From contig CAWCUS010000002.1 in the NCBI GenBank assembly GCA_963798845.1, positions 128,001 to 192,000 on the forward strand: a stretch of 64,000 nt of DNA, written 5' to 3'. Of the stretch, positions 11,499 to 47,565 are shown piece after piece; the first letter of the stretch is position 1, and every line of letters begins with the position of its first letter. The notes beneath the pieces were generated by a model. The model was given only the letters and a program-made list of their open reading frames with translations, had not been told where the DNA came from and ran no database searches. This stretch comes from an uncultured Gemmatimonadales bacterium (GTDB lineage: Bacteria; Gemmatimonadota; Gemmatimonadetes; Longimicrobiales; RSA9). The position numbers and the translations under genes were made by a program.

Positions 11499-13373
11499 AT
11501 GCAGGATCTCACTGAACGCCTCCTCGCCCTGGCGAGGGAGCTCCGCCGTCGCCGTGTCCTGCACACCGCGGGTATCTACCTCGTGGCGGCGTGGGCGGCC
11601 GTGGAGGTCACGTCCACGGTCTTCCCGCTCCTCTTCCTGCCGGACTGGGCCGCGCGCGCCGTGGTCGTGGCCGCGTTCCTCGGTCTCCCCGTGGTGCTGG
11701 TGCTGGCGTGGGCCTTCGATGTCACGCCCGAGGGGGTGCAGCGCGCGGAATCGGCGCCCGGTCGGAAAGTCCCCGTGGAGGCGAGAGTCGCGTTGGTCGC
11801 CGTCACTGTCGTGGTGACGGGGCTGGCCGGGTGGGGAGCGCGGGGATTCTGGCTGCGGGAGCCGGCCGACTCGACGGCGTCACTGGACCCGGCGCGCGTC
11901 GCCGTCCTCTACTTCGATGATTTCTCGGAAGGCCACCAGCTCGGGTACGTGGCGGATGGCCTGACGGAGGCGCTGATCCACGAGCTGGCGCAGATCGGGC
12001 CGCTCGAGGTGGTGTCGCGCAACGGCGTGAAGCCGTTCCGCAACCACTCGGTCCCCGAGGATAGCCTGGCCCTCCTGCTGAACGCGGGGACGATCGTGGA
12101 GGGGAGCGTGGAGTCGGACGGCGACCAGCTGCGCGCCACGGTGCAGATGATCGATGCCCGGACTGGGGTGCACACGTTGAGCGTGCGCCTTCAGCGCAGC
12201 GGGGACGACGTGCTGGAGCTGCGCGACGAGATCGTCCGGGAAGCGGCGAGGCGGCTCGGCCAGACGCTGGGGCGTGAGCTGGAGCTGGCCCGCGTCGGGC
12301 ACGGCCCGCACAGCGGCACGGCGTGGTCCGCGGTCCAGCAGGCGCACGCCCTCATGGACCAGGCGGACACGCTGGCGTGGACACTGGGCGATCAGCCCGG
12401 CGCGCTCGCGACCCTCGGCCGGGCCGACTCGCTTTTCGCCATCGCCATGCGCCACGACCCGCGCTGGATCGAGCCGTTGATCGGGCGGGCGGCCGTACGG
12501 CTCGTGCGCACCGTGATCATTACCGGCGCGGTTCGGGCGGAGCTCCCGGACAGTGCGGCGGAGCCGCTGCGGCAGGGACTTCTGTTCGTGAACCAGGCGC
12601 TTCAGATGGAGCCGCGCAGCTCGGAGGCGCTGTCGTGGCGAGGAAGGTTGCGCTACCGGCTGAGCTGGATCGGCGGCGACGCCGCGCCGAGCCTCGTGGA
12701 GGAGGCCGAGTCGGATTACCGCCAGGCGGTGGCCGTGGACTCCAGCAACGCCGAAGCGTGGGTCGGGCTGGCCGAAGCGCTCCGGTCGCGCGGCGAGTTC
12801 GGGGAGGCGGCGCTGGCCGCTGACCGTGCGCTGGCGGCGGACCCGTTCCTGATCCACGCGGAGAAGGACATCCTGTTCACGCTCTCGCACGTCTGGCTGG
12901 AGCTGGAGCGTTTCGACCGCGCGGCCGAGTTCGCAGCGGAGGGGCGTAGGCGCTACCCGGCCGAGCCCATGTTCGCCGCGGAGCTGCTGGTGCTCTCCGC
13001 CGGCTGGGCGGGCCCGCACATCCCGGTCGACTCGGCCTGGGCGCTGGTGCACGCGGTGGAGAACGGGTTCAGCATGACGTTCTGGCCCCACGGCCACCTC
13101 CAGGTGGCCGCCGTCCTGGCCCGGGCCGGACAGCCGGACAGCGCTCTGGCCGTGGTGGCCAGGGTCAAGTCCGGGGAGCCCAGCCCGTGGCTGGACTATT
13201 TCGAGGCCAACGTACGACTCCAGCTCGGGGAGCCCGGGGAGGCCATCGATCGCCTGGCCGACTTCGTCCGGGCCGTGCCCCACCGCAGGGACTACATCGC
13301 GCAGGACTGGTGGTGGCGACCGCTGGCCGACTCCACCCGGTTCAAGGAGCTGGTGGCGGACTCCACCGAGTAG
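11499..13373 (+). CDS. Membrane-anchored TolB-like/TPR protein (no catalytic domain evident)
   Basis: ELRRRRV..YLVAAW..VEV N-terminal TM domain; VAVLYF..ADGLTEALI..L..I..L.VVSR TolB-like domain; TPRs. Confidence 0.8.
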   Translation: MQDLTERLLALARELRRRRVLHTAGIYLVAAWAAVEVTSTVFPLLFLPDWAARAVVVAAFLGLPVVLVLAWAFDVTPEGVQRAESAPGRKVPVEARVALVAVTVVVTGLAGWGARGFWLREPADSTASLDPARVAVLYFDDFSEGHQLGYVADGLTEALIHELAQIGPLEVVSRNGVKPFRNHSVPEDSLALLLNAGTIVEGSVESDGDQLRATVQMIDARTGVHTLSVRLQRSGDDVLELRDEIVREAARRLGQTLGRELELARVGHGPHSGTAWSAVQQAHALMDQADTLAWTLGDQPGALATLGRADSLFAIAMRHDPRWIEPLIGRAAVRLVRTVIITGAVRAELPDSAAEPLRQGLLFVNQALQMEPRSSEALSWRGRLRYRLSWIGGDAAPSLVEEAESDYRQAVAVDSSNAEAWVGLAEALRSRGEFGEAALAADRALAADPFLIHAEKDILFTLSHVWLELERFDRAAEFAAEGRRRYPAEPMFAAELLVLSAGWAGPHIPVDSAWALVHAVENGFSMTFWPHGHLQVAAVLARAGQPDSALAVVARVKSGEPSPWLDYFEANVRLQLGEPGEAIDRLADFVRAVPHRRDYIAQDWWWRPLADSTRFKELVADSTE

Positions 13374-13388
13374 GGCGTTCCAGGCCGA

Positions 13389-13799
13389 TCAGTGCTTCCC
13401 GACGATGATCTCCGGGTCCAATACCCGGACGTTCGCGCCGTCCCACACGCCGACCGAGTACTTGTAGCTCCCTTGCGGGGCGTTCGCATGCACCGCGGCC
13501 CGGAACGGGCGGTTCTTCTGCCCGTGCATGGCCTGTGGCGGGAGCGTGGGGCCGAACAGGTCGGCGTGCCGCTGCACCGCCAACCCGAAATCCAGGTCGC
13601 TGGCCCACTCGATCCGGGTGCCGGGGGTGACGTGAACCTGCATCGAGTCCACGACGACGGCCCCCGCGCTGTCCAGCGAGATCGTGATCGTGACGGGCCG
13701 CTGCACCCGATTCGCCGGAGCTGCCGCCGCGAGGGTCAGGAGCGCGGCAACGGCGAACAGGGAGGCGACGCGGATCCGGGGAGAAGTGAGACGCGACAT
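13389..13799 (-). CDS. Small secreted cupredoxin-like protein with C-terminal YKY...DP motif
   Basis: Signal peptide; V.V.PG.RIEW and G.YKYSV...LDPEII patterns; GAGG upstream of ATG 13799. Confidence 0.65.
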   Translation of the reverse strand: MSRLTSPRIRVASLFAVAALLTLAAAAPANRVQRPVTITISLDSAGAVVVDSMQVHVTPGTRIEWASDLDFGLAVQRHADLFGPTLPPQAMHGQKNRPFRAAVHANAPQGSYKYSVGVWDGANVRVLDPEIIVGKH

Positions 13800-14181
13800 G
13801 TGTCTTTCCTCACGGGGGTGGGGGCTCGTCCCCGGGCACCGATCGCCCGGGCGCCACAGGCAGTGGCGCGTACATAGTACCTGAGGTGCTGCCGCGCAGA
13901 AAGGATCTCGTTGGCACGATGCCGCTCCCTTGACGCGCTCCACCGGCCGGCCGACTTTGAACCCGAACGCCGGGACGTCGCCCCCTACCCACGGCTCCGG
14001 CGGGCAGCATGGCTTCGCCGGAGGCTACCCTCATGCGTTCGCTGCCACACCGCAGACCGTCACGCGGTCTCGGCCCCCGTGCGTTCCGACGAGGCCGCGA
14101 GACCGGTGCGCCCCGAGCGTTCCGCGCACTCCCTGACGCTCGCGGTCCGATCCTCGCCCACGTCCCACGGCTGGAGGTCCC

Positions 14182-15228
14182 ATGGCAGGCATAGTCGGCT
14201 ACGGCGCGTACATCCCCCGCAACCGGATCCGGGCGGAGGAGATCGCGCACCAGTGGGGAAAGGACGCCGAGTCGATCCGCGCCGGGCTGCTGCTCCAGGA
14301 GAAGTCGGTACCCGGCCTGGACGAGGACACGATCACGATCTCCGTGGCGGCCGGGCGCGCCGCGCTGGCGAGGGCGGGCGTCGACCCGCAGAAGGTCGGG
14401 GCACTGTACATCGGCTCGGAAAGCCACCCGTACGCGGTGAAGCCGAGCGGCACGGTGGTCTCGGAGGCGCTGGGGATCGGGCCGCATGTGCACGTGGCGG
14501 ACTTCGAGTTCGCTTGCAAGGCCGGAACGGAGGCGATGTTCGTGGCGCTGGGGCTGGTGGAGTCCGGCCGCGTGGAATACGCCATGGGGATCGGGGCGGA
14601 CACGTCGCAGGGGGCGCCGAGCGACGCGCTGGAGTACTCCGCGTCCGCGGGAGGGAGCGCGTACATCTTCGGCAAGGACAATGTCATGGCCGACGTGGTG
14701 GACGCGGTCAGCTACACCACGGACACGCCGGACTTCTGGCGTCGGGAGGGTGAGTTCTACCCCCGCCACGGCGGACGCTTCACGGGCGAGCCCGCGTACT
14801 TCAAGCACGTGCTGAGCGCCACGAAGCTGATCCTGGAGCGCACTGGGCTGAAGCCGGCCGATTTCCGCTATGCGGTCCTCCACATGCCGAACGGCAAGTT
14901 CCCGCTGAGCGCGGGGAAACAGCTCGGCTTCACGCGCGAGCAGCTCGAGCCGGGGTGGATCGTGCCCACCATGGGCAACACGTATTCCGGCAGCTCGCCC
15001 ACCGGCCTGGCGGCGACGCTGGACATCGTGGAGCCGGACCGGCTCATCCTCATCACCTCGTTCGGGTCCGGCGCGGGCAGCGATTCGTTCGTGCTGCGCA
15101 CCACCGACGCCCTGGTGGAACGGCGCGGCCGTGCGCCTTCCGTGCGCTCGATGCTGGACGGTCCTCGGCGGTACCTGACCTACGGGGAGTACGTGAAGCT
15201 GCGCGAGAAGATCCGGATGAACGACTGA
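14182..15228 (+). CDS. Hydroxymethylglutaryl-CoA synthase, archaeal type
   Basis: GIVGYGAYIPR.RI, GSESHPYAVKP (Glu), EFACKAGT (Cys), HMPNGKF (His), GNTYSG, SFGSGAGSD; GGAGG RBS. Confidence 0.9.
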   Translation: MAGIVGYGAYIPRNRIRAEEIAHQWGKDAESIRAGLLLQEKSVPGLDEDTITISVAAGRAALARAGVDPQKVGALYIGSESHPYAVKPSGTVVSEALGIGPHVHVADFEFACKAGTEAMFVALGLVESGRVEYAMGIGADTSQGAPSDALEYSASAGGSAYIFGKDNVMADVVDAVSYTTDTPDFWRREGEFYPRHGGRFTGEPAYFKHVLSATKLILERTGLKPADFRYAVLHMPNGKFPLSAGKQLGFTREQLEPGWIVPTMGNTYSGSSPTGLAATLDIVEPDRLILITSFGSGAGSDSFVLRTTDALVERRGRAPSVRSMLDGPRRYLTYGEYVKLREKIRMND

Positions 15229-15305
15229 CCGCGCGGCAGGCGCGGGGGGCGGGGGGCGGACCTGGGCCGGCGCGAGCCGGCAGGCGGAGAACCCGAGGAG
15301 GTTGC

Positions 15306-16454
15306 ATGCGCGACGTCGCCATTGTGAGTGCCGGGATGACCAGCTTCGGCGAGCTCTGGGATTCGAGCTTGCGCCAGAATGTTCGCGGAGGCCGCGCTGG
15401 AAGCGCTGCGCGGCGCGGGCGTGGACCACCTGGACGCGATCTACGTGGGGAACATGGCCGGGGGCCAGTTCGTGGGGCAGGAGCACCTCGGCCCGATTGC
15501 CGCGGACCAGCTGGGGATGGCCGGCGTGCCCGTGACGCGGGTGGAGTCGGCCTGCGCGTCGGGGGGATGGCGCTGCGGGCGGCGTGGATCGAAGTCGCCT
15601 CGGGGCTGAGCGACGTCGTGCTGGCCGCGGGCGTCGAGAAGATGACCAATGGCGCCGACGCCACCAACGTCCTGGCCACGGCGGCGGACCAGGAGCTGGA
15701 AGCGTATCACGGGATCACGTTCCCCGGGCTCTACGCCATGATCGCGCGGGCCCACATGGCTACGCGTGGAACCACGCTGGAGGACATGGCGTGGGTTTCA
15801 GTGAAGAACCACCGGCACGGTGCGCTCAACCCGCGTGCGCAGTACCGGCGCGAGATCACCGTGGAGGACGTCATGGGCTCGTCCCTGGTGGCCGAGCCGT
15901 TGCGGCTGCTCAACTGCTCGCCCGTGAGCGACGGGGCGGCGGCGGTGCTCGTGGTGCCGCTCGAGCGGGCGAAGGAGTTCACCGACCGGCCGGTGGCGAT
16001 CCGCGGGAGCGGGGCCGCCACGGCGCCGCCCGCGCTGGCGGACCGCGAGGACCCGTCGGTGCTCACGGCGGTGAGGCTGTCGGCGGAGCGCGCGTACGCC
16101 ATGGCCGGCATCAAGCCGTCGAACGTGGACGTGGCCGAGGTCCACGACTGCTTCTCCATCGCCGAGATCTGCTGCATCGAGGCCATGGGCCTCACCGACG
16201 GCTGCAACCCGGCGCAGGCGGCGAAGAGCGGCTTCACGGCGCTGGGCGGACGCCGCCCGGTGAACACGAGCGGCGGACTGAAGGCGAAGGGTCACCCCGT
16301 AGGCGCCACGGGGGTGGCGCAGGCGATCGAGATCTTCGAGCAGCTGCGGGGGGAGGCGGGCAACCGCCAGGTGGAGAATGCACACATCGGCGTCGCGCAG
16401 AACATGGGCGGCTCCGGTGGCAGCTCCGTGGTCCACGTTTTCGAGAGGGTGTGA
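15306..16454 (+). CDS. Acetyl-CoA acetyltransferase (archaeal/SCP2-type thiolase); two compensating frameshifts (~15379 and ~15566)
   Basis: VESACASGG (alternate frame, 15379-15566), GVEKM, KNH.HG..NP.AQ, CSPVSDGAAA, EVHDCF, SGGLKAKGHPVGATG, NMGG. Confidence 0.88.
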   Translation: MRDVAIVSAGMTSFGELWDSSLRQNVRGGRAGSAARRGRGPPGRDLRGEHGRGPVRGAGAPRPDCRGPAGDGRRARDAGGVGLRVGGMALRAAWIEVASGLSDVVLAAGVEKMTNGADATNVLATAADQELEAYHGITFPGLYAMIARAHMATRGTTLEDMAWVSVKNHRHGALNPRAQYRREITVEDVMGSSLVAEPLRLLNCSPVSDGAAAVLVVPLERAKEFTDRPVAIRGSGAATAPPALADREDPSVLTAVRLSAERAYAMAGIKPSNVDVAEVHDCFSIAEICCIEAMGLTDGCNPAQAAKSGFTALGGRRPVNTSGGLKAKGHPVGATGVAQAIEIFEQLRGEAGNRQVENAHIGVAQNMGGSGGSSVVHVFERV

Positions 16455-16456
16455 CA

Positions 16457-16858
16457 ATGCCGAGTCCCAGGTACTGGCGAGAGATCCCGGCCCGCTACCG
16501 GCTCGAGGGCAGCCGCTGCACCGCATGCGGCAAGGTGGTCTTTCCGAAGCGGCAGGTCTGTCCCGCGTGCAGGGGCGAGGAAATGGAAGAGCTGCGGCTC
16601 TCGGCGCGCGGACGCGTGGTCACCTCCACGGTGATCCACGTGGCGCCGGACGAGCTCACCCCCGAGGCGCCGTACGCCATGGCCATCATCGAGACTCCGG
16701 AAGGCGCGCGGTTGATGGCGCAGGTAGTGGACTGCGTCCCGGAGGAGATCCTCCCTGGCGTGGAGGTGGCGCTCGAGTTCCGCCGCATACGCGCGGAGGG
16801 ACACGGCGGCATCCTTTGCTACGGTCACAAGGCCGTGCCGGTCGGAGGCGCATCGTGA
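16457..16858 (+). CDS. DUF35 Zn-ribbon/OB-fold protein (thiolase/HMG-CoA synthase scaffold)
   Basis: PRYWR.IP.RYRLEGS.CTACG...FPKR.VCPAC (two CxxC); OB fold; FRRI..EG..G.L.YG.K. Confidence 0.9.
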   Translation: MPSPRYWREIPARYRLEGSRCTACGKVVFPKRQVCPACRGEEMEELRLSARGRVVTSTVIHVAPDELTPEAPYAMAIIETPEGARLMAQVVDCVPEEILPGVEVALEFRRIRAEGHGGILCYGHKAVPVGGAS

Positions 16859-17061
16859 ACGGCGTGGTGGAGGTCCCGGTCGTCGCCCGGGTCAGCGACG
16901 AGCACTACCGCGCCTATCAGGCCGAAGCCCGGCGCCGCGGCGTCCCGGTGGAGCAGCTGGTGGCGCACACCGTGAACTGCCTGCTCGAGGAGCTCGAGCG
17001 GGAAGAGAACGAGTGCCGCGACGTGCTTCGCCGGACGACCCCCGCCGGCGGCTCCGCGTAG
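16855..17061 (+). CDS. Small hypothetical protein, ribbon-helix-helix-like
   Basis: GTG start overlaps the DUF35 stop; GGAGG upstream; VVARVSDEHYRAYQAEARRRGVPVEQLV pattern. Confidence 0.55.
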   Translation: MNGVVEVPVVARVSDEHYRAYQAEARRRGVPVEQLVAHTVNCLLEELEREENECRDVLRRTTPAGGSA

Positions 17062-17340
17062 ACCCGGGCCCCGACCGCCGGGCTGTTCCTCGGTGACGTA
17101 GCCGGCTCCGCGACCAGGAAGACCTTCCTGTGCGCGGCGATGTACCGCGGCGCGTCGTCCACCGAGCCCTCCGAGATCTGCGACAGATCCCCTTCGTCGC
17201 GCAGCGTCGCTCCGCGGATCCGCTTCACGGCTACGGGGTCCATTCGCGGCCTCGTGCGGTTCGAGCGGCGAAGTCGGCACGGGACGGCTCGCCTGTTGCG
17301 TTCGTGAAGGTGGGAGCATCCACCAGACCGGAGGGGGCCG

Positions 17341-18402
17341 ATGTCGAGCGATCGGAAGAGTCAAAGCGAAGGCACGGAGCGCAGGAAGTGGGCCGGGGGA
17401 CGGGAGCGTTTCCGGGAGGCGGCGGAGCGCACGGCGGAGGCGCAGCGGCGGATCCAGGCCGAGCTGGAGCGGAGAGAGGCGGAGCGCGAGCGCGGGGGCT
17501 CCGATGGCGAGGGTGGTGATGCGACGGAGGCGGTGCAGGCGAGCGCTCGCGAAGAGCCGGAGTCGCCCGTCCCGGAGCAGCACCAGGCCAAGCCGGGGCG
17601 GGAGTCGGAGCTGGAGCCGGCGCCGCGCTTCGCGGGCCACGGGTACAGAGGGTCGGGGAAGCTCGAAGGGCGGGTGGCGCTGGTCACCGGCGGCGATAGC
17701 GGGATCGGCAGGTCGGTGGCGGTCCTGTTCGCCCGGGAAGGGGCGGACGTTGCAGTCGTCTACCTGAGCGAGCACGAGGACGCCGAGACCACGAAGCGCG
17801 CCGTGGAGGCGGAAGGGCAGCGCTGCATCACGCTCTCCGGCAATGTACGGGATTCCGCCTTCTGCGAGTTCGCCGTGGAGCGCACCGTTGAAGAGCTCGG
17901 CGGTCTGGACGTGCTGGTGAACAACGCGGCGTTCCAGGAGCACGCCAGGTCGCTCGAGGACCTCACGGATGACCACATCCGGATGACTCTGGAGACGAAC
18001 ATCCTGGGCTACATGGCCATGGCGAGGGCCGCGCTCCCTCACCTGGGCGAAGGAAGCGCCATCGTGAACACGGGGTCGGAGACGGGGCTGTTCGGGCAAC
18101 CGATGCTGCTGGACTACTCCGCGACGAAAGGGGCGATCCATGCCTTCACGCGCGCCCTCGCCCAGAACCTGGCCGACCGCGGGATCCGCGTGAACGCCAT
18201 CGCGCCCGGACCGGTGTGGACGCCCCTCAACCCGGCCGACCGGGCGGCAGAGGCAGTGCCGGAGTTCGGGAGCGACACGGCCATGCACCGGCCCGCCCAG
18301 CCGGAGGAGCTCGCGCCCGCGTACGTCTTCCTCGCCTCGCCCGTCACGGCCGGGTACATCACGGGCGCCGTGCTCCCGGTCATGGGCGGCGTAAAGGGGT
18401 AA
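17341..18402 (+). CDS. SDR family oxidoreductase (YhdF/YghA-like)
   Basis: Y.GSGKL.GRVALVTGGDSGIG, NNAAFQ, YSATK, PGPVWTP. Confidence 0.92.
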   Translation: MSSDRKSQSEGTERRKWAGGRERFREAAERTAEAQRRIQAELERREAERERGGSDGEGGDATEAVQASAREEPESPVPEQHQAKPGRESELEPAPRFAGHGYRGSGKLEGRVALVTGGDSGIGRSVAVLFAREGADVAVVYLSEHEDAETTKRAVEAEGQRCITLSGNVRDSAFCEFAVERTVEELGGLDVLVNNAAFQEHARSLEDLTDDHIRMTLETNILGYMAMARAALPHLGEGSAIVNTGSETGLFGQPMLLDYSATKGAIHAFTRALAQNLADRGIRVNAIAPGPVWTPLNPADRAAEAVPEFGSDTAMHRPAQPEELAPAYVFLASPVTAGYITGAVLPVMGGVKG

Positions 18403-19285: not shown

Positions 19286-20023
19286 CTACAGCCAGTGCTG
19301 GAAGAGGACCATGCTGATCGCGGCCGCGCTGGCCAGGCTCGCCACCGCCGCGCGCGTGCCCTGGTGGAACGCTTCCGGGAGCAGCTCCACGAGCACCATG
19401 AACACCATGGCGCCCGCGGCGAACCCCAGACCGTATGGCAGGGCGCTCCGGAACGCCTCGACGAAGAGAAACGCGGGCACGGCCATCACGGGCTGCGGCA
19501 GCGACGATATGATGCTCCAGCCCGCGCAGCGGGCCACGCTCACACCCTGCGGCCGGAACACGGCGCTGATCGCCACACCTTCCGGGATGTTGTGGATGGC
19601 GATGGCGATCGTGATGAGCGCGGCGAGGGTCATCCCGCCGCCGAAGGAGACGCCCACGGCCACACCCTCGGAGAACGAGTGCACGGTCATCACCACCATC
19701 ATGAGCAGCATCTTCTTCGCGCCCTCGCCACGCGCGGCCTCGAACACCAGCTCCTCCTCGTCGCGGTCGCCGAGGATCCGCTGCGTGACCAGGATGAAGA
19801 GCACACCGACGACGCCGCCCACCACCACCTCCACCCTCCCGTAGCCCGACCCCTCCGACACCAGCCCGAAGCTCGCCCCGAGCATCAGCCCGGCCGCCAC
19901 CGCGTTGGAATACGCGATCAGGCGAACGGACGGCCGGCGAACGAAGGCGAAAGGAAGCGCGCCGAGACCCGTGGCGATCGCCGTCGCCAGGGCGTAGAGG
20001 AAGACCAGGACGACCGTGCTCAC
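19286..20023 (-). CDS. ZIP family metal transporter (GufA/ZupT-like)
   Basis: ATGLGALP, AAGLMLGAS, VHSFSEG, IHNIPEG, FAAGAM...ELLPEA; GTG overlaps the upstream ZIP stop. Confidence 0.9.
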   Translation of the reverse strand: MSTVVLVFLYALATAIATGLGALPFAFVRRPSVRLIAYSNAVAAGLMLGASFGLVSEGSGYGRVEVVVGGVVGVLFILVTQRILGDRDEEELVFEAARGEGAKKMLLMMVVMTVHSFSEGVAVGVSFGGGMTLAALITIAIAIHNIPEGVAISAVFRPQGVSVARCAGWSIISSLPQPVMAVPAFLFVEAFRSALPYGLGFAAGAMVFMVLVELLPEAFHQGTRAAVASLASAAAISMVLFQHWL

Positions 20024-20748
20024 GGAATGTGCCCGCCGAGCAGGACCACCAGCCCGAGGGCTACCATCGAGACGAGAGCGATGCTGGTGCTGCCAGCCTG
20101 CCGGTAGGACTCCGGCAGGAGCTCCACCAGCACCAGCTGGAACAGGGCGCCCACGGCGAAGCCGGTGGCCAGCGGAAGGAGCGCCGGGATGGCGGAGATC
20201 ATCGAGAAGGTGACCACCGCCAGCAGGACCTGGTTGATGTTCGTCGCCAGGGCGAGACCCAGCGACTGGACCACAGAGAGGCGCTGCCGCGTCAGCAGCG
20301 AGCTCAGCACCATCGCCTCGGGGATGTTGTGGACCGCCAGCGCCAGAGCCATCGAGATCCCCAGCGGGATCGAGACCAGCATGGCGACGCCGATCGCGAT
20401 CCCCTCGTGCGCCGCGTGGAGCGTGTCGGCCAGGATCACCTTGTAGCCGTGCTCGATGCTGTCCTCCTGTATGCGGTCGAGCTCGGCCGTTCCGGTGAGG
20501 GCGTGCGTGGCTCGCACGAAGCCGATCCCCACCACGGCACCCACCGCTCCCGCCAGCAGCCCCGTCTTCAGCCCGGCGGTCAGGAGCATGTAGGCCACGC
20601 CGAACATCAGACCGGCGGCCACGGCGTTCGCCCAGCCGATCACCGAAGTGCGCGGGCGGCCGCCCAGGACCTGCGGCAGCACGCCCAGCATGGCTGTGAA
20701 CGAGGCCACGGCCGAGTAGACGAAGACGGTGACAACCGGGTTGCGCAT
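20020..20748 (-). CDS. ZIP family metal transporter, divergent paralogue
   Basis: AAGLMFG, LHAAHEG, VHNIPEA, FAVGA...ELLPES. Confidence 0.82.
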   Translation of the reverse strand: MRNPVVTVFVYSAVASFTAMLGVLPQVLGGRPRTSVIGWANAVAAGLMFGVAYMLLTAGLKTGLLAGAVGAVVGIGFVRATHALTGTAELDRIQEDSIEHGYKVILADTLHAAHEGIAIGVAMLVSIPLGISMALALAVHNIPEAMVLSSLLTRQRLSVVQSLGLALATNINQVLLAVVTFSMISAIPALLPLATGFAVGALFQLVLVELLPESYRQAGSTSIALVSMVALGLVVLLGGHIP

Positions 20749-20998
20749 CGGCACGGAGGTATTGTGGCACCCGCCCGGGCATTCCGCGAGAGGCGCTTGC
20801 TGCTCATGACGCCGTGGAGCGGGCGGCTCGGCGCGCACCACGCGACGCACCGGCCGGCACCCGCGCGGGCCCCCCGGCGCCGTTCCTGCATGACGACGCA
20901 CCGGAACCCGCGCGCGGAACCCGCGCGGGCGGGGCACTCCAGCGCGCCGGTCGCCGCTGGCCCGCGACGCTCTGACCACCACATGGCTCGACGACCCA

Positions 20999-39670: not shown

Positions 39671-40589
39671 GTGCCTGCGACCACGAGAGCGACGACGGGG
39701 AGAAAGGCGACGAAGTCGGCGAGCTTCCGGACCGTGTTCGGCGACCTGGCCGAGCTGACCAAGCCGGGCATCACGCGGCTCGTCGTATTCACCACGGGCG
39801 CGGGCTACCTCATGGCGGCGGGGCGGGAGATGGACTTCCTGCGCCTGTTCAACACCGTTTTCGGGGCCGCGCTGGCGTCGGCGGGGGCGAACGCGCTGAA
39901 CATGTGGTGGGAGCGGGAGACGGACGGGCACATGAAGCGGACGCGGATGCGGCCGCTGCCCGCCGGGCGAGTCTCGCCGCGGACGGCGCTGGGGCTGGCA
40001 CTGGTTCTGTCCGTTCTCGGGCTCGCGCACCTCGCCCTGTTCGTGAACCTGGAGACGCTGCTGCTGGTGGCGACCAGTCTGGTCACGTACATCCTCGTCT
40101 ACACGCCGCTCAAGCGACGGACCCACCACGCCACGCTCATCGGCGCGCTCCCGGGCTCGCTCCCGACGCTGGCCGGGTGGACGGCGGCCGGGCACCCGAT
40201 CACGCTCACCGCGCTGGCGCTCATGGGGGTCGTCTTCTTCTGGCAGAATGCCACACTTCTACGCGCTGGCCTGGGTTTATCGCGACGACTACGCCCGGGG
40301 AGGCATGCGCATGCTGACCTCGGTGGACCCGCGAGGGACGCGGCTCGGGCTCGAGAGCACGCTTTACTCGGCGCTGCTCCTCGTGACGAGCATGGTGCTG
40401 GTGGCCACGGGGCTGATCGACTGGGTCTACGGCGTGGGCGCGCTGGCGCTCGGCACGGTCATGGTCGTCCTGGGCGGGCGGCTCTGGCGGGTGCGGGAGG
40501 ACCGTCGCGCGTGGCATCTGTTCTTCGGCTCCATTCTTTATCTCCCCGCCCTCCTCGTCCTGATGCTGGTCGACCGCTTCTTCCTGTAG
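39671..40589 (+). CDS. cyoE: Protoheme IX farnesyltransferase (heme O synthase); +1 frameshift at ~40248
   Basis: LTKPGI, N...E...D..M.RT..RPLP.G, YT.LKR, IG..PG..P.L.GW, FWQ/MPHF.AL...Y..DY. Start position approximate. Confidence 0.92.
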
Positions 40590-41512: not shown

Positions 41513-42914
41513 ATGGCCACCACCGTCTCTTCCACGCCCGTCGGCACGGTCAGCGCGCGGCTGGCGGACCTGGGCGGCGGATCTCTCGTTCGACGATCTC
41601 GGCCCGGAGGCGATCCACGAGGCCAAGCGCTACCTGCTGGACTCGCTGGGGTGTGCGCTGGGGGGCTTCCGGCAGCACGACGTGAAGATCGCGCTGCAGG
41701 TGCTGGACGAGGTGGCGGGGGAGGGCCGGGCGACGGTGCTGGGGAGCGGCCGGCGGATGGACGTGGTGTCGGCGTCGCTGGCGAACGCGTTGATGATCCG
41801 CGTGATGGACTACAACGACATCTACTGGCAGCAGGACCCGTCGCACCCATCGGACCTGATCCCGGCGGCGCTGGCAATGGCGGAGCGGCAGGGACTGGGC
41901 GGGCGCGACGCGATCCTGGGGATCGTGCTGGGGCACGAGCTGGAGATGCGTTTCTGTGAAGCGGCGTTTCCGGGGATCCGGGAGCGCGGCTGGCACCACG
42001 CCACGCTGACGGCGTTCGTGTCGCCGGTGGTAGCAGGTCGGCTTCTGGGGCTGGACGCGGAGCGGATCCGGCACGCCATCGGGATCAGCGGCTCGAGCCA
42101 CGCCACCGTGGGCGGCGTGGTGGCGGGCAAGCTGTCGATGATGAAGAACACGGCGGACCCGATGGCCACGCAGGCGGGCGTGATGGCCGCGCTGCTGGCG
42201 GAGCGGGGCTACACGGGCCCTGAGGGGGTGGTGGAGGGGAAGGAAGGGCTGGTCCACGTCATGGGCCCGGAATGGAAGCTGGAGGTCCTGACCGAGGGCC
42301 TGGGGGAGAGCTGGCGGATCGAGCGGTGCGGGATGAAGGCGTTCCCGACGGAGGCGCTGACGCACGCGCCGATCTCCGCGGTGCTGGACGTGGTGATGGA
42401 GCACGACCTGAAGCCGGCTGAGATCGAGAAGGTGCGGATCCGGTCGCTGGCCCGGGCGGCGGACATCCTTGCGGACGCGAGCAAGTACGACCCGCGCACG
42501 AAGGAGACGGCGGACCACAGCCTGCCGTACGTGATCGCGGCTGCGATCGTGGACCGTCAGGTGACGCCGCGTCAGTTCGAGGCGGAGCGCATCATGGACC
42601 CTGAAGTCCGGGCCCAGCTGGCGAAGGTGGAAGTGGTGGCGGACGCGGAAATCGAGGCGGTGTTCCCGAAGCTGCAGCGTGTGCACGTGACCGTGCTGAC
42701 GAGGGACGGCCGCGAGCTGACGAAGCAGCTGGACTATCCGAAGGGGGATCCGCGGAACCCGCTCACGGATGCGGAGGTGGAGGCGAAGTTCGCGGCGCTG
42801 GCGGAGCCCGTGATGACGGGGGCGTCGCAGCGTCGGCTGGTGGACGCCGTCTGGTCGCTGGAGCGGCAGGACAGCGTGTCGGCGCTCATGCGGCTCGCGC
42901 GGGCGGACCGCTAG
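41513..42914 (+). CDS. prpD: MmgE/PrpD family dehydratase (2-methylcitrate dehydratase-like); +1 frameshift at ~41569
   Basis: LLDSLGCA.G, AN...IR..DYND, HPSD.IP, GWHH.T, G.LS.MK, K.FP.E...H, KETADHSLPY, YPKG.PRNP; GGAGG RBS. Confidence 0.88.
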
Positions 42915-43005
42915 GCCACGTGGGCGGGCCACCCCGGCCCGTCCGGCAATCCCAGTGGACCGCGGTCCCGAGGCGCGCGAGATCGGGCTGCGGGGAGGAG
43001 GATCG

Positions 43006-44955
43006 ATGGGCGCGACAATGGTCGAGAAGATCGCACGGGCCCACATGGTCGACGGGCCCGATCGCCCGCTCCGGCCCGGGGACATGATTTCGCTCCGGCC
43101 GCGGCACATACTGACGCACGACAACACGGCCGCGGTGATGTCGAAGTTCCGCGCAATCGGCGTGGAGCGGATCCATGACCCGCGTCAGCCGGTGATCGTG
43201 CTGGATCACGAGATCCAGAACCGCTCGCCCGAGAACCTGGAAAAGTACACGCGGATCCGTGCCTTCGCCCGTGAGCACGGGCTGGACTTCCATCCGGCGG
43301 GGACGGGGATCGGGCACCAGATCATCGTCGAGCGCGGCTATGCGCTCCCCGGCACGCTGGTGGTGGCGTCCGACTCCCACGCCAACACGTATGGCGCGGT
43401 TGGCGCGCTGGGCACGCCCGTGGTGCGCACGGACGCCGCCGCGATCTGGGCCACGGGGGAGTTCTGGTGGCAGGTGCCGGCGACCGTGCAGGTGGTGCTG
43501 GAAGGGGAGCTGCGACCGGGCGTCAGCGGCAAGGACCTGATCCTCACCCTGTGCTCGCTCTATCCGGCCGGGGAAGTGCTGAACCGGGTCGTGGAGTTCG
43601 CCGGGCCCGGGGTCGCCTCGCTGGACATGGCGGCGCGCATGACGGTGGCGAACATGACCACGGAGTGGGGGGCGCTCGGCGGGTGGTTCCCTGTGGACTC
43701 GCGCACGCTCGAGTTCCTGCGGGAGCGGAAGGCGAGGCTGGAGGCGGCGGACCACCATCGGATCACCGACGCGCAGCTCTTCGCGTGGGGCGCGGCTCCG
43801 CCGCGGCCGGACTCGGACGCCCGCTACGTGGCCCGGATCATCGTGGACCTGGGCAGGGTCAGCCCGTTCCTGGCCGGGCCGGACACGGTGCAGACGGGGC
43901 GGCCGGTGGCGGAGACGGAGGCGGACGGGATCCGCATCGACAAGGCGTACCTCCTTTCCTGCGTGAACGGTCGGCTGGAAGACCTGGAAGCGGCTGCGGA
44001 CGTGGTCCGCGGGCGTCGCGTCGCGCCGCACGTCTCGTTCTTCGTGGCGGCGGCGAGCCGGGAGATCCAGGAGAAGGCCGAGGCGAGCGGGGCGTGGGGC
44101 ACGCTCCTGGACGCGGGCGCCCGGGTGCTCCCGCCCGGCTGCGGCCCGTGCATTGGACTGGGAGAGGGGCTGCTCCAGGACGGGGAGGTCGGGATCTCGG
44201 CCACGAACCGGAACTTCAAGGGACGGATGGGCTCCCGCGACGCCCGCGTGTACCTGGCCAGCCCGGCCGTGGTGGCGGCGTCGGCGCTGGCCGGACGCGT
44301 AAGCAATGGGCGCGTCGCCGGCGGCATCCCGCCGTACGAGTTTCACCGGCTCGACCTGGCCGAGGAGGGCCCGGAGTCGGTGGAGATCATGGCGGGGTTC
44401 CCCGAACGGATCACGGGCCGCCTGGTCTTCGTTCCGCAGGAGAACCTGAACACGGACGGGATCTACGGTAAGGAGCACACGTACCGGGATCGGTCGGTGG
44501 CGGAGATGGCGGCAGCGGTCATGGCGAACTACGATCCGGAATTCGCGAGCCGCACCGCCGCGGGCGACGTCCTGGTGGGGACGCGGAACTTCGGCACGGG
44601 ATCCAGCCGGGAGCAGGCGGCCACCGCTCTCCAGGCGAAGGGGATCGCGCTGGTGATCGCGGAGAGCCTGTCGCAGACGTACCAGCGGAACGCGTTCAAC
44701 AACGGCTTCATCTGCCTGGAGTGCCCGTCGCTGGTGCAGTCGATCGAAAAGGCGCTGGCCGGGGAGATCGCGGAAGGGGAGCCCACGATCGTCACGGGTG
44801 ACGAGCTGAGCGTGGACTTCCGACGGGGGACCATCGAGTGGCGGCGCAAGACGTACCGTTTCCCGGCGCTCGGGCGGGTGCCGCAGAGCCTGGTGGTCGC
44901 GGGGGGCGTCGAGGCGAAGATCCGGGCGACGCTCGGGGGCAACGCAGACCGTTGA
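43006..44955 (+). CDS. lysF: Homoaconitase-like, large and small subunits fused (fungal Lys4/LysF type)
   Basis: THDNT, GIGHQ, SDSHAN.YG, RTDAAAIWATG..WWQVP, SCVN.R, CGPCIGLG.GLL..GEVGISATNRNFKGRMGS, NTDGIY.K, NFGTGSSREQAATAL. Confidence 0.85.
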   Translation: MGATMVEKIARAHMVDGPDRPLRPGDMISLRPRHILTHDNTAAVMSKFRAIGVERIHDPRQPVIVLDHEIQNRSPENLEKYTRIRAFAREHGLDFHPAGTGIGHQIIVERGYALPGTLVVASDSHANTYGAVGALGTPVVRTDAAAIWATGEFWWQVPATVQVVLEGELRPGVSGKDLILTLCSLYPAGEVLNRVVEFAGPGVASLDMAARMTVANMTTEWGALGGWFPVDSRTLEFLRERKARLEAADHHRITDAQLFAWGAAPPRPDSDARYVARIIVDLGRVSPFLAGPDTVQTGRPVAETEADGIRIDKAYLLSCVNGRLEDLEAAADVVRGRRVAPHVSFFVAAASREIQEKAEASGAWGTLLDAGARVLPPGCGPCIGLGEGLLQDGEVGISATNRNFKGRMGSRDARVYLASPAVVAASALAGRVSNGRVAGGIPPYEFHRLDLAEEGPESVEIMAGFPERITGRLVFVPQENLNTDGIYGKEHTYRDRSVAEMAAAVMANYDPEFASRTAAGDVLVGTRNFGTGSSREQAATALQAKGIALVIAESLSQTYQRNAFNNGFICLECPSLVQSIEKALAGEIAEGEPTIVTGDELSVDFRRGTIEWRRKTYRFPALGRVPQSLVVAGGVEAKIRATLGGNADR

Positions 44956-44985
44956 CGGGTCCCGGCGAGCGGATCCCGGTCAACG
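44950..44985. other. Intergenic stem-loop between the aconitase and dehydrogenase genes
   Basis: CGTTGAC/GTCAACG outer stem with GGG/CCC and TCC/GGA inner pairs, directly before the AGGAGG RBS. Confidence 0.45.
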
Positions 44986-44998
44986 CAAAAGGAGGAGC

Positions 44999-46213
44999 AT
45001 GAAGCACACGGTCGTGACAATGCCTGGGGACGGGATCGGCAAGGTGGTGCTGCCGGAGGCGCTGCGGGTGCTGGACGCGGTGGGTTTCGAGGCGGAGTAC
45101 GTCCACGGCGACATCGGCTGGGACTTCTGGGTCAGCGAGGGGAACGCGCTGCCGGAGCGGACCGTGGCGCTGCTGGCGCAGCACAGGCTGGGGCTGTTCG
45201 GCGCGATCACGTCGAAGCCGAAGACGGAGGCGGCGCGTGAGCTGAAGCGCGAGCTGAAGGACCAGGGCTACGTGTATTTCAGCCCCATCGTAGGACTGCG
45301 GCAGCGCTTCGATCTCGACATCTGCATCCGCCCCTGCCGTTCCTTCCCGGGGAACCCGCTGAACTTCGTCCGGCGTGATCCGGCGGGAGGCGTGGCCGAG
45401 CCGGCGGTGGATTCGGTGATCTTCCGTCAGAACACGGAAGGGCTGTATTCGGGGGTGGAGTGGACGAACCCGCCGAAGGGCGTGCGGGACGCGCTGGCGA
45501 CGCACCCGAAGTTCAAGCCGTTCACCGACACGCCGTCGCACGACCTGGCGATCTCGACGCGGATCTTCACGCGCCGCGCCTGCGCGCGGATCACGCGCGC
45601 CGCCTTCGAGTACGCGGTGAAGCACGGTTACGAGAGCGTGACGGTGTGTGAGAAGCCGAACGTGCTGCGGGAGACCAGCGGGATGATGGAAGAGGAAGCG
45701 AAGAAGGCGCACGAGGACTTCCCCGACATCCAGCTCTGGTCGACGAACATCGACGCGCAGATGATGTGGCTGACGAAGAACCCTGAAGACTACGGGGTCA
45801 TCGTCGCCGGGAACATGTTCGGCGACATCGTGAGCGACGGCTTCGCGGGGCTGGTCGGTGGCCTCGGTTTCGCCTGCTCGGGGAACCTGGGCGACAATGT
45901 GGCCGTCTTCGAGCCGACGCACGGCTCGGCGCCCAAGTACGAGAAGCTGGATCCGCCCATCGTGAACCCGATCGCCATGGTCCTGAGCGCGGCCATGCTC
46001 CTGGACCACGTGGGCGAGCGGGAGAAGGCGGAGCAGGTGCGGGCCGCGGTGGCGGCCGTGGTGCGCGATGGCAGCGTCCGCACCTACGACATGATGCGGA
46101 TCCCCGGCGGGCCCGGCGCGATCGCGCAGGGGGCCGCCAGCACCACTGAGCTGACCGACGCCATCATCGCCGCGCTGTCCGCGCGCGCAGTCGCGAGCGG
46201 GCAGGCGGGATGA
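44999..46213 (+). CDS. Isocitrate/isopropylmalate dehydrogenase family, homoisocitrate-dehydrogenase-like
   Basis: PGDGIG, LFGAITS, YFSPIVGLRQ.FDL...RP (similar to yeast Lys12 YSSPIVALR as recalled), RQNTEGLY, K.NV, NMFGDI.SD, FEP.HGSAP. Confidence 0.85.
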   Translation: MKHTVVTMPGDGIGKVVLPEALRVLDAVGFEAEYVHGDIGWDFWVSEGNALPERTVALLAQHRLGLFGAITSKPKTEAARELKRELKDQGYVYFSPIVGLRQRFDLDICIRPCRSFPGNPLNFVRRDPAGGVAEPAVDSVIFRQNTEGLYSGVEWTNPPKGVRDALATHPKFKPFTDTPSHDLAISTRIFTRRACARITRAAFEYAVKHGYESVTVCEKPNVLRETSGMMEEEAKKAHEDFPDIQLWSTNIDAQMMWLTKNPEDYGVIVAGNMFGDIVSDGFAGLVGGLGFACSGNLGDNVAVFEPTHGSAPKYEKLDPPIVNPIAMVLSAAMLLDHVGEREKAEQVRAAVAAVVRDGSVRTYDMMRIPGGPGAIAQGAASTTELTDAIIAALSARAVASGQAG

Positions 46214-47565
46214 GCGGGCCGGAGGCCGGCGTTTCGCCGGGCGCCCGAATGGCCGCCGGAGCGGCGGTGGTGGCGGGTCGGGGAGAGGCGGGGCGAGCCG
46301 GCGATGACGTCCGCTCCGACCTGCACGTCGTCGTGGAAGCGGGCGGCGACGCCGTGACGCTGGACGTGAGGTCGAAGGTGGCGTCGTTGTTCGGCGACGC
46401 GATCCGCGCCACCGTCCTCGAGACCCTCAATGCGTTCGGGGTGAGCGCCGCTCGCGTGGTCGTGGATGACAAGGGCGCCGTGCCCTGGGTGATCGCGGCG
46501 CGCGTGGAAGCCGCGGCCCGCGCCGCCGGCCTGGTGGAGCGGACCGGCGCCGCCGTTCCCTGCGCCGGAGGACGAGGGCCGGCGCTGGGTTTTCCGGCGA
46601 CGAGCCCGACCCCGAGGGACCGGCTCCGCCGGTCCCGCCTCTACGTCCCCGGAAACGAGCCCAAGTTCATGCCGAACGCGGGGCTGCACCGTCCGGACGG
46701 CGTGATCCTGGACCTCGAGGACTCGGTCCACCGGGGCGCGAAGCCGGCGGCCCGCCTGCTGGTCCGGAACGCGCTGCGCTGCGTCGATTTCGGCGCGGCC
46801 GAGCGGATGGTTCGCATCAATCAGCTTCCGCTCGGGCTGGAGGACCTGGAGGCCATCGTCCCGGAGCTCCCCAACCTGGTGCTGGTCCCGAAAGTGGAGG
46901 AGGCTGCGCAGGTGGCGGAGGTGGCCGCGCGGATCGAGGCGATCCGGTCGTCCGCTGGGCTGCCGTCGAAGGAGGCGCACCCGATCTGGCTGATGCCGAT
47001 CCTCGAGTCCGCGCTCGGGATCGAGAACGCGTTCGCGATCGCGCGCGCGTCGGTCACGGTTGCGGCGCTGACCATCGGGCTGGAGGACTACACGGCCGAC
47101 CTGGGCGTTGTGAAGACGAAGGAAGGTGCCGAGACGCTGTGGGCGAGGGCGCGTCTGGTGAACGCGGCCAGGGCGGCGGGCGTCCAGGCCATCGACTCGG
47201 TGTACGGCGACGTGGCGGACGTGGACGGGCTGCTGGCGTGGGCGCGGGCGTCGCACGCCATGGGCTTCGTGGGCATGGGGTGCGTGCACCCCCGCCAGAT
47301 CCGGGTGATCCACGCGGGCTTCGCCCCCACGCCGGAGGAGCTGGAGAAGGCACAGAAGATCGTGGCGGCGTTCCACGACGCGGAGGCGCGGGGCCTGGGC
47401 GTGGTGAGCCTGGGGAGCAAGATGATCGACCCGCCGGTAGTGCTGCGGGCCACGCGGCTGGTGGAGCGGGCGAGGGAGATGGGGGTTCTGGACGCAAGCG
47501 CGGCCGACGCGGGTGCGGTTGCGGCGTCGCCGGCCTCGAACGGGTCGGAGGGGGGTGGCGAGTGA
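46210..47565 (+). CDS. citE: Citrate lyase ACP (CitD)-beta subunit (CitE) fusion
   Basis: N-terminus AG....RSD..V...S.V...FG..I...V...L...GV......DKGA...I.ARV.AA (CitD); C-terminus RRS.LY.PGN, ILDLEDSV, VRIN, GLEDYTADLG, AIDSVY.D, HPRQI (CitE). Confidence 0.88.
   Translation: MSGPEAGVSPGARMAAGAAVVAGRGEAGRAGDDVRSDLHVVVEAGGDAVTLDVRSKVASLFGDAIRATVLETLNAFGVSAARVVVDDKGAVPWVIAARVEAAARAAGLVERTGAAVPCAGGRGPALGFPATSPTPRDRLRRSRLYVPGNEPKFMPNAGLHRPDGVILDLEDSVHRGAKPAARLLVRNALRCVDFGAAERMVRINQLPLGLEDLEAIVPELPNLVLVPKVEEAAQVAEVAARIEAIRSSAGLPSKEAHPIWLMPILESALGIENAFAIARASVTVAALTIGLEDYTADLGVVKTKEGAETLWARARLVNAARAAGVQAIDSVYGDVADVDGLLAWARASHAMGFVGMGCVHPRQIRVIHAGFAPTPEELEKAQKIVAAFHDAEARGLGVVSLGSKMIDPPVVLRATRLVERAREMGVLDASAADAGAVAASPASNGSEGGGE

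Follow-up and report, generated by a model that had tools for sequence, protein, structure and literature searches.

Organization of the locus

We analyzed a window of 64,000 nucleotides (nt) from an uncultured Gemmatimonadales bacterium of soil or sediment (assembly GCA_963798845.1, contig CAWCUS010000002.1, positions 128,001 to 192,000), which has a G+C content of 71%. The genome, hereafter G000, comprises 4.26 Mb in 6 contigs, and the window is part of contig C2. The subject of this study is a group of three plus-strand genes that fills positions 14182 to 16858, exactly the interval in which the initial annotation had placed three co-oriented genes. In this order, they encode an archaeal-type 3-hydroxy-3-methylglutaryl-coenzyme A (HMG-CoA) synthase (HMGS), an acetoacetyl-CoA thiolase (AACT), and a DUF35 protein.

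The HMGS gene (14182 to 15228) encodes 348 amino acids (aa), among them the catalytic residues E80, C112, H234, and N266, and carries a GGAGG sequence 6 nt 5' of its ATG. The thiolase gene (15306 to 16454), which profile matches and motifs assign to the archaeal/SCP-x-like kind, would encode about 382 aa if read through, but as assembled it falls into three pieces on the plus strand: 15306 to 15377; 15379 to 15567, which lies in another frame and contains the CAS motif of the catalytic Cys; and 15567 to 16454, with the HDCF and GHP motifs. The DUF35 gene (16457 to 16858), which starts 2 nt past the thiolase stop, encodes a predicted scaffold protein of 133 aa, consisting of a zinc ribbon (C21xxC24 and C35xxC38) and an OB fold. 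GGAGG-like ribosome-binding sites were observed 5' of both the HMGS and the thiolase genes. A promoter scan of positions 13300 to 17500 returned no promoter-like site, and a terminator scan of the same interval returned one terminator-like site, upstream of the operon at 13498, which is no more than shuffled sequences give.

Family assignment and conserved motifs

The HMGS scored 508.7 bits with the archaeal-type equivalog NF003274 (cutoff, 244) and 506.4 bits with TIGR00748 (cutoff, 353.35). With the bacterial MvaS model, TIGR01835, it reached 95.8 bits against a cutoff of 360.35, which rules out an MvaS-type identity and bears out the archaeal type proposed in the initial annotation. Its best match among Protein Data Bank (PDB) chains was 6esq_I, the HMGS subunit in the complex from Methanothermococcus thermolithotrophicus, with 426 bits, compared with 174 to 178 bits for PhlA-type chains and at most 71 bits for MvaS-type chains. 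Furthermore, E80, C112, H234, and N266 align with E82, C114, H238, and N270 of 6esq_I, so that the catalytic Glu, Cys, and His previously noted as intact are indeed in place, together with the Asn. The DUF35 protein matched 6esq_E with 116.8 bits and PhlB with 50 bits; it contains the Pfam domains PF12172 (48.7 bits) and PF01796 (62.8 bits), and its two CxxC motifs, also recognized earlier, are CTAC (residue 21) and CPAC (residue 35).

For the thiolase pieces, the best models were NF053570 (archaeal acetyl-CoA acetyltransferase) and the subfamily model NF004720, and both could be scored only on separate pieces, with 381.4 and 68.3 bits for the former (cutoff, 600) and 383.4 and 64.5 bits for the latter (cutoff, 420). 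The CAS, HDCF, and GHP motifs are all present, the first of them out of frame as assembled. The archaeal style formerly attributed to this thiolase agrees with its best models and its motifs, though not as one reading frame in the present assembly.

According to passages of a 2026 paper on a homologous Streptococcus complex (PMC12960953), HMG-CoA-forming complexes can be told from PhlABC and MucABC by the E-C-H-N tetrad of HMGS together with the CxS, GHx, and HDxF motifs of the thiolase, the tetrad being lost in PhlA/MucA and HDxF in PhlC/MucB. Since the tetrad and the three thiolase motifs are accompanied here by archaeal-type scores, a grouping with MvaS or PhlABC is rejected. Judged by these profiles and motifs, the trio belongs to the archaeal-type thiolase/HMGS/DUF35 family, as an ordinary member that is widespread in bacteria and that standard annotation models name correctly.

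Mevalonate, hopanoid, and MEP genes of the genome

The window contains no HMG-CoA reductase (HMGR), as had been noted. The genome has two HMGR matches, both class I, at C1:683013 and C4:466867. The one on C4 is part of a cluster (C4:458000 to 477000) with the order SHC-HpnH-HpnA-IDI2-HMGR-MK-decarboxylase-IPK-squalene synthase-like, where SHC is squalene-hopene cyclase, IDI2 is type 2 isopentenyl diphosphate isomerase, MK is mevalonate kinase, and IPK is isopentenyl phosphate kinase. The decarboxylase, of the mevalonate (di)phosphate type, scored 184.6 bits, above its cutoff, and IDI2 scored 386.9 bits; MK (100.5 bits) and IPK (116.8 bits) remained below their cutoffs. DXR and IspH of the methylerythritol phosphate (MEP) pathway were also found, so that HMGR, downstream mevalonate genes, and MEP genes are all represented in G000. 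A phosphomevalonate kinase of the Gram-positive type (TIGR01220) was not found, with a model that left the control genomes below the cutoff as well and with other phosphomevalonate kinase families not searched. A profile search of the genome yielded no second HMGS, of either the archaeal or the MvaS type, and no HMG-CoA lyase was matched in G000 at an E value of ≤1e-40.

The second HMGR, on C1, stands alone (C1:675000 to 692000), adjoining genes for a polyhydroxyalkanoate-granule-protein-like protein, an ArsA/GET3-family ATPase, and a UbiB-like kinase.

A genome of the same genus (G201) retains both the trio and the hopanoid-mevalonate cluster. In another family of the phylum, genome G086 carries an equivalent hopanoid-IDS-IDI2-HMGR-MK-decarboxylase-IPK cluster, IDS being an isoprenyl diphosphate synthase, with HpnN in addition. 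A different, bacterial-type cluster, with a class II HMGR fused to MK and with IDI1, was observed in genome G051, in which no HMGS was found.

Proposed role of the trio

Because the trio encodes the sole HMGS of a genome that also has HMGR and the lower mevalonate pathway, and because both the trio and the cluster are kept in G201, the trio is the natural source of HMG-CoA for the C4 cluster. The lack of an HMG-CoA lyase match in G000 is in line with this reading. We therefore favor, with moderate confidence, an intact thiolase/HMGS/DUF35 complex feeding a mevalonate route in the hopanoid cluster. By homology to the Methanothermococcus complex, the thiolase would condense two molecules of acetyl-CoA, an unfavorable step, and the resulting acetoacetyl-CoA would pass through a shared CoA-binding chamber to HMGS, where a third acetyl-CoA would be added to give HMG-CoA, while DUF35 would hold the two enzymes together. 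The product would most likely be supplied to class I HMGR, MK, the decarboxylase, IPK, and IDI2 of the C4 route, which sits inside a hopanoid/squalene cluster and would run beside the MEP pathway. The gene identities, motifs, operon order, and gene inventory behind this proposal are directly observed; that the proteins form a complex, that the intermediate is channelled, and that HMG-CoA flows on to mevalonate, we infer, and the link between trio and mevalonate in G000 is plausible, if unproven.

It is possible to extend this proposal to two isoprenoid lines in the genus, a tentative scheme in which we place rather low confidence. The MEP pathway would be the general line, whereas an archaeal-flavored mevalonate line (the trio, class I HMGR, MK, a phosphomevalonate-type decarboxylase, IPK, and IDI2) would be hard-wired into the hopanoid cluster and dedicated to hopanoids and squalene; elsewhere in the phylum the trio would act as a reversible node between HMG-CoA and acetyl-CoA, and HMGR would stand alone, working on leucine-derived HMG-CoA.

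Distribution and phylogeny

A scan of a collection of species-representative genomes gave at least 591 confirmed relatives of the trio, and the counts for related loci given here use the best 80. These span Gemmatimonadota, Ignavibacteriota, Bacteroidota, Kapabacteria, WOR-3, Zixibacteria, Cloacimonadota, Fidelibacterota, Acidobacteriota, and others, the closest among the matches listed being Gemmatimonadota metagenome-assembled genomes (MAGs), with HMGS up to 88% identical. The order HMGS-thiolase-DUF35 is found in 71 of the 80 loci; a contig end truncates 7 others, and the remaining 2 have a different arrangement. Among 151 evenly sampled Gemmatimonadota genomes, HMGS occurs in 22, representing 20 of 83 genera.

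A quick maximum-likelihood tree of HMGS was built from 103 rows (the window, 79 bacterial loci, the archaeal locus L098, 20 rows of its phylum, and 2 outgroups); it includes a single archaeal phylum, assumed to be archaeal, and two very long outgroup branches, and fixes neither root nor donor. The 80 bacterial rows form one clade, with a Shimodaira-Hasegawa-like approximate likelihood ratio test (SH-aLRT) support of 99. The window falls inside an 18-row clade dominated by Gemmatimonadota (support, 100), and rows of Ignavibacteriota/Bacteroidota and of Acidobacteriota cluster too. This topology would fit an old presence of the family in bacteria followed by vertical descent and loss.

The horizontal acquisition suggested as possible in the initial annotation finds no support as a recent event. 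No sign of a recent transfer into this genome is seen in the G+C content, which matches between the operon (0.703) and the genome (0.705), or in the single bacterial clade, which tracks the phyla and keeps the Gemmatimonadota together.

The source of the archaeal row, a 1.8-Mb genome labelled Halobacteria archaeon (G156; loci L098 and L119), gave no HMGR match, and no DUF35 gene was found after the thiolase; both findings would be unexpected in an archaeon, and this bin may be incomplete.

Co-occurrence with HMGR and recurrent neighbors

Several observations weigh against a supply of mevalonate by the trio. In G000, the trio and the mevalonate cluster lie on different contigs (C2 and C4). Of the 151 phylum genomes, 22 have HMGS and 20 have HMGR, and the two sets overlap only in G000 and one further genome (G018), compared with 2.9 expected if they were independent; the trio and HMGR thus co-occur no more than by chance across the phylum. 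The decarboxylase is present in 4 of the 151 genomes, 2 of which have the trio (0.58 expected); this leans toward a mevalonate link, but the enrichment is not significant (p ~0.10) and comes from related, nonindependent genomes. Of 10 genomes outside the phylum that bear the trio, only 2, both from Zixibacteria, gave an HMGR match. G086 has no HMGS of either type despite its hopanoid-mevalonate cluster, and the genes that recur next to the trio in other loci are not mevalonate genes. Two further points concern the assembly: in the C4 cluster, the MK sequence is divided over two frames and IPK can be aligned only as two separate pieces, and no read contig spans the second of the two indels in the thiolase gene. 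The archaeal-like mevalonate entry proposed initially is accordingly backed by the content of this genome (two HMGR, MK, decarboxylase, IPK, and IDI2, and no other HMGS) and finds no echo in co-occurrence across the phylum.

HMGR itself is often found without partners, the mevalonate decarboxylase being missing from 16 of the 20 HMGR-bearing genomes of the phylum. When the MvaS model was run on 15 of the HMGR-bearing genomes (of those lacking the trio, G076, G096, G146, and G150 were left out), none reached the cutoff, and in the 14 that lack the trio the model had no hit at all, another point that does not favor the mevalonate reading. Because these 14 genomes lack an MvaS match, HMGR in Gemmatimonadota evidently usually works without a recognizable HMGS, with HMG-CoA obtained in another way.

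Three genes recur near the trio in the best 80 loci: one for a carboxyltransferase in 14 loci, one for an enoyl-CoA hydratase in 12, and one for an acyl-CoA dehydrogenase in 7. The carboxyltransferase, located 3' of the trio, has 535 aa and is methylcrotonyl-CoA-carboxylase-like; the hydratase, likewise 3' of the trio, is a methylglutaconyl-CoA-hydratase-like crotonase, with PRK07468 as the top NCBIfam model, followed by gamma-carboxygeranoyl-CoA hydratase. In loci L034, L040, L052, and L095 and 10 others (from WOR-3, Stahlbacteria, Cloacimonadota, Aminicenantes, Zixibacteria, and others), the genes that come after the trio encode the carboxyltransferase, a 108-aa protein of no family, the enoyl-CoA hydratase, and sometimes a biotin carboxylase. 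Locus L034 also has CoA-transferase, methylmalonyl-CoA-epimerase-like, and methionine-gamma-lyase-like genes 5' of the trio.

A main role in this lineage independent of HMGR, at a node between acetyl-CoA and leucine/isovaleryl-CoA metabolism, with mevalonate supply incidental or absent, is a serious rival, which we hold to be less probable than the mevalonate reading but compatible with it. In the forward direction, HMG-CoA could be converted through methylglutaconyl-CoA and methylcrotonyl-CoA to isovaleryl-CoA, a primer of iso-fatty acids, as in the alternative isovaleryl-CoA (AIB) route of Myxococcus; in the reverse direction, leucine-derived HMG-CoA could be split to acetyl-CoA, replacing the missing HMG-CoA lyase. 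Such a role would agree with the absence of HMGR from 20 of the 22 trio-bearing genomes of the phylum and from 8 of the 10 of other phyla, with the recurrence of the three acyl-CoA genes just described, and with the failure to match a lyase in G000; in the same vein, a passage of Villanueva et al. (PMC7852524) describes Cloacimonetes MAGs with a complete MEP pathway and only AACT and HMGS.

However, the trio has no conserved neighbors in Gemmatimonadota loci: Pfam searches on 43 open reading frames (ORFs) that flank the trio in 11 Gemmatimonadota-clade loci found nothing recurrent, and a synteny search with the neighbors in the window (BNR, PlsC, TPR, SDR, PAP2, and ZIP) gave only 2 weak matches in the best 80 loci. 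Nor do trio and lyase replace each other across the 151 phylum genomes, the trio occurring in 22, the lyase in 15, both in 3, and neither in 117. Moreover, no clear liu cluster was found in G000, where the best carboxyltransferase (C4:165925) lies among methylmalonyl-CoA mutase genes and NhaA, and the second match is a propionyl-CoA-carboxylase-like pair. In addition, the genus keeps the trio alongside a full lower mevalonate pathway.

Since trio loci mostly lack HMGR, the usual role of the trio in bacteria is probably not mevalonate synthesis. The archaeal-type entry complex forms one large bacterial clade extending over many phyla (at least 591 loci), mostly without HMGR.

The interrupted thiolase frame

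As assembled, the thiolase gene has one extra base at 15378, where the plus strand reads CAGAATG and relatives read CAG-ATG or CAG-CTG, probably a consensus error, and one base too few at about 15561 to 15566, where a run of six G faces seven bases (GGC/GGT/GGG GGG) in relatives and the missing base restores the first frame. Codons 25 to 87 (63 codons, including the ACASGG of the catalytic Cys) are thereby put into another frame; the switch creates no stop, and a 499-aa ORF remains open by chance. A DNA alignment with four close relatives located exactly one added base (CAG-A-ATG) and, 189 nt further on, one base lost in the G run. Both indels look like consensus errors in a gene that is really intact, a conclusion for which we rely on short-read contigs, a hot spot of errors at CAGAATG, other genes broken in this assembly (the UbiA-family gene described below, MK, and IPK), and the intact thiolase of relatives in general and of G201 in particular.

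No RNA data set turned up for the stretch. The read evidence comes from four runs, which contain only a small share of the words (0.06 to 0.19) and leave several bins uncovered. Contigs of two of them, X1 and X2, which belong to one study and possibly to the source sample, are one base shorter at 15378 and show no other difference over 125 and 262 bases. Genome-wide, CAGAATG is over-represented relative to CAGATG, about twofold compared with similar contexts (179 CAGAATG and 1151 CAGATG); from these counts, the miscalling of CAGATG is only partial, not complete. A shift of the coding phase was detected at 21 of 63 scorable CAGAATG sites, 16 of the 21 being +1 shifts, while eight control motifs gave 3 to 12%. 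For G6 and C6 runs, phase shifts are only about twice the background rate. A possible cause of the hot spot is base modification at the motif CAGATG, which would interfere with the calling of bases in long reads.

In related loci, the thiolase pieces share one frame in 72 of 73 cases. The only locus with pieces in different frames is L070, from an Ignavibacteriaceae MAG, and this too is probably an indel of a long-read assembly. The operon of G201, with 86% nucleotide identity and the same neighbors, has an uninterrupted thiolase in which the corresponding pieces lie in one frame with 95 to 100% amino acid identity.

If both indels were real, the thiolase would be a true pseudogene, and the operon would be decaying, or only HMGS and DUF35 would work, with acetoacetyl-CoA from another thiolase. 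We regard this as improbable, even though the two indels are present in the assembly as given and a compensating pair 189 nt apart is unusual for random error. The first extra base is missing from the short-read contigs of two runs and falls in a systematic error context, at which an unrelated, respiratory-type UbiA gene is broken as well; MK and IPK are also broken here and whole in G201; and the out-of-frame stretch keeps a conserved peptide, 65 to 81% identical to that of the closest 16 loci and 95% identical to that of G201. We leave a small probability to a real pseudogene because no independent reads cover the second site, where an error is backed only by the twofold excess at G6 and C6 runs. 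More generally, these frameshifts call for caution when long-read metagenome assemblies are scanned, since CAGAATG explains breaks in several unrelated genes.

A UbiA-family prenyltransferase gene in the window (39671 to 40586, plus strand) changes frame at a CAGAATG near 40243 and so falls into two parts; its product has a heme O synthase-like motif, FFWQ/MPHFYALAW.

Comparison with known systems

The structure of the thiolase/HMGS/DUF35 complex of Methanothermococcus thermolithotrophicus was reportedly solved by Vogeli et al. in 2018, in PNAS, under PDB entries 6ESQ and 6ET9. The trio resembles this complex in having all three subunits (HMGS and DUF35 matching the solved chains with 426 and 117 bits), encoded by adjacent genes, and in keeping the E-C-H-N tetrad, the HDxF, CxS, and GHx motifs, and the four zinc-ribbon Cys residues. 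It differs in its bacterial host, which has MEP genes, in being known here from the genes alone, in the order HMGS-thiolase-DUF35, conserved across bacterial phyla, and in its HMGR, which is encoded apart from the trio and was usually missing from the search results for relatives.

An archaeal-type mevalonate pathway, of the MPD/IPK kind (MPD being the phosphomevalonate-type decarboxylase), is said to have been described in Chloroflexi by Dellas et al. in 2013. In the sections of Hoshino and Gaucher (2018; PMC6107057) available here, Chloroflexi are the only bacterial MPD/IPK-type case named, and the corresponding part of a 2026 review (PMC13001223) repeats the statement for Chloroflexota; the word "Gemmatimonadota" does not occur in these texts of PMC6107057 and PMC13001223. 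Like the Chloroflexi route as outlined there (PMC6107057), the genes of G000 are bacterial and comprise archaeal-type AACT and HMGS, IPK, a decarboxylase, and IDI2, with no phosphomevalonate kinase found, on a weak control. They differ in belonging to another phylum, in the class I HMGR, in the presence of MEP genes, and in the location of the lower pathway in a hopanoid cluster, and the substrate of the decarboxylase is putative. The genus thus combines the trio, an IPK-type lower mevalonate pathway in a hopanoid cluster, and MEP, and such a pathway is described only for Chloroflexi in the parts considered of the two sources (PMC6107057, PMC13001223). Should the tentative two-line scheme be correct, an MPD/IPK-type route would exist outside Chloroflexi, the sole bacterial case so far named. 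The points of wider interest are that HMGS and HMGR occur uncoupled from each other within the phylum and that, beside MEP, a hopanoid cluster contains mevalonate genes of the IPK type.

The mevalonate operons of the candidate phyla radiation (Microgenomates), as presented in the same portion of PMC6107057, likewise have an archaeal-type thiolase/HMGS/DUF35 trio in bacteria; there the trio lies inside the mevalonate operon, whereas in G000 it is alone, on another contig. The MvaS and AIB route of Myxococcus xanthus, in the excerpted account of PMC5389471, is comparable in that a synthase can provide HMG-CoA for purposes besides mevalonate, but its MvaS is a bacterial-type enzyme that lacks a DUF35 partner.

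The Friedel-Crafts acyltransferases PhlABC (PpATase; PDB 5M3K) and MucABC (SmaATase) are bacterial and have a homologous three-subunit architecture, and, as the passages of PMC12960953 indicate, they have lost the HMGS tetrad and HDxF and no longer make HMG-CoA, whereas the trio keeps both. The initial annotation had offered a repurposed acyl-CoA condensing complex as an option. That the trio is a repurposed C-acyltransferase of the PhlABC/MucABC kind, belonging to secondary metabolism, is hardly credible: the three-gene architecture and fold family are shared and PhlA and PhlB are the next-best PDB matches, but the scores (178 versus 426 bits for HMGS and 50 versus 117 bits for DUF35, with the archaeal chains ahead) and the motifs lost from PhlA/MucA and PhlC/MucB (PMC12960953) point the other way, and no polyketide or tetramic-acid genes lie nearby.

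Judged from listings and excerpts, a literature search returned no paper on a link between mevalonate and hopanoids in Gemmatimonadota, on archaeal-type mevalonate in the Fibrobacterota-Chlorobiota-Bacteroidota (FCB) group, on IPK together with hopanoids, or on DUF35-HMGS with leucine or isovaleryl-CoA, although supplementary distribution tables may list such genomes.

Other features of the window

Two tandem genes for ZIP-family transporters on the minus strand (19289 to 20805) abut at about 20023 to 20026; in both, the match to the Pfam Zip model is confined to the C-terminal half of the model. Farther downstream, positions 41529 to 49172 hold a plus-strand run of genes for PrpD/MmgE, aconitase, a member of the isocitrate/isopropylmalate dehydrogenase family, and the acyl carrier (PF06857), beta (HpcH/HpaI), and alpha (CitF) components of citrate lyase, which is possibly a citrate/methylcitrate-type module.

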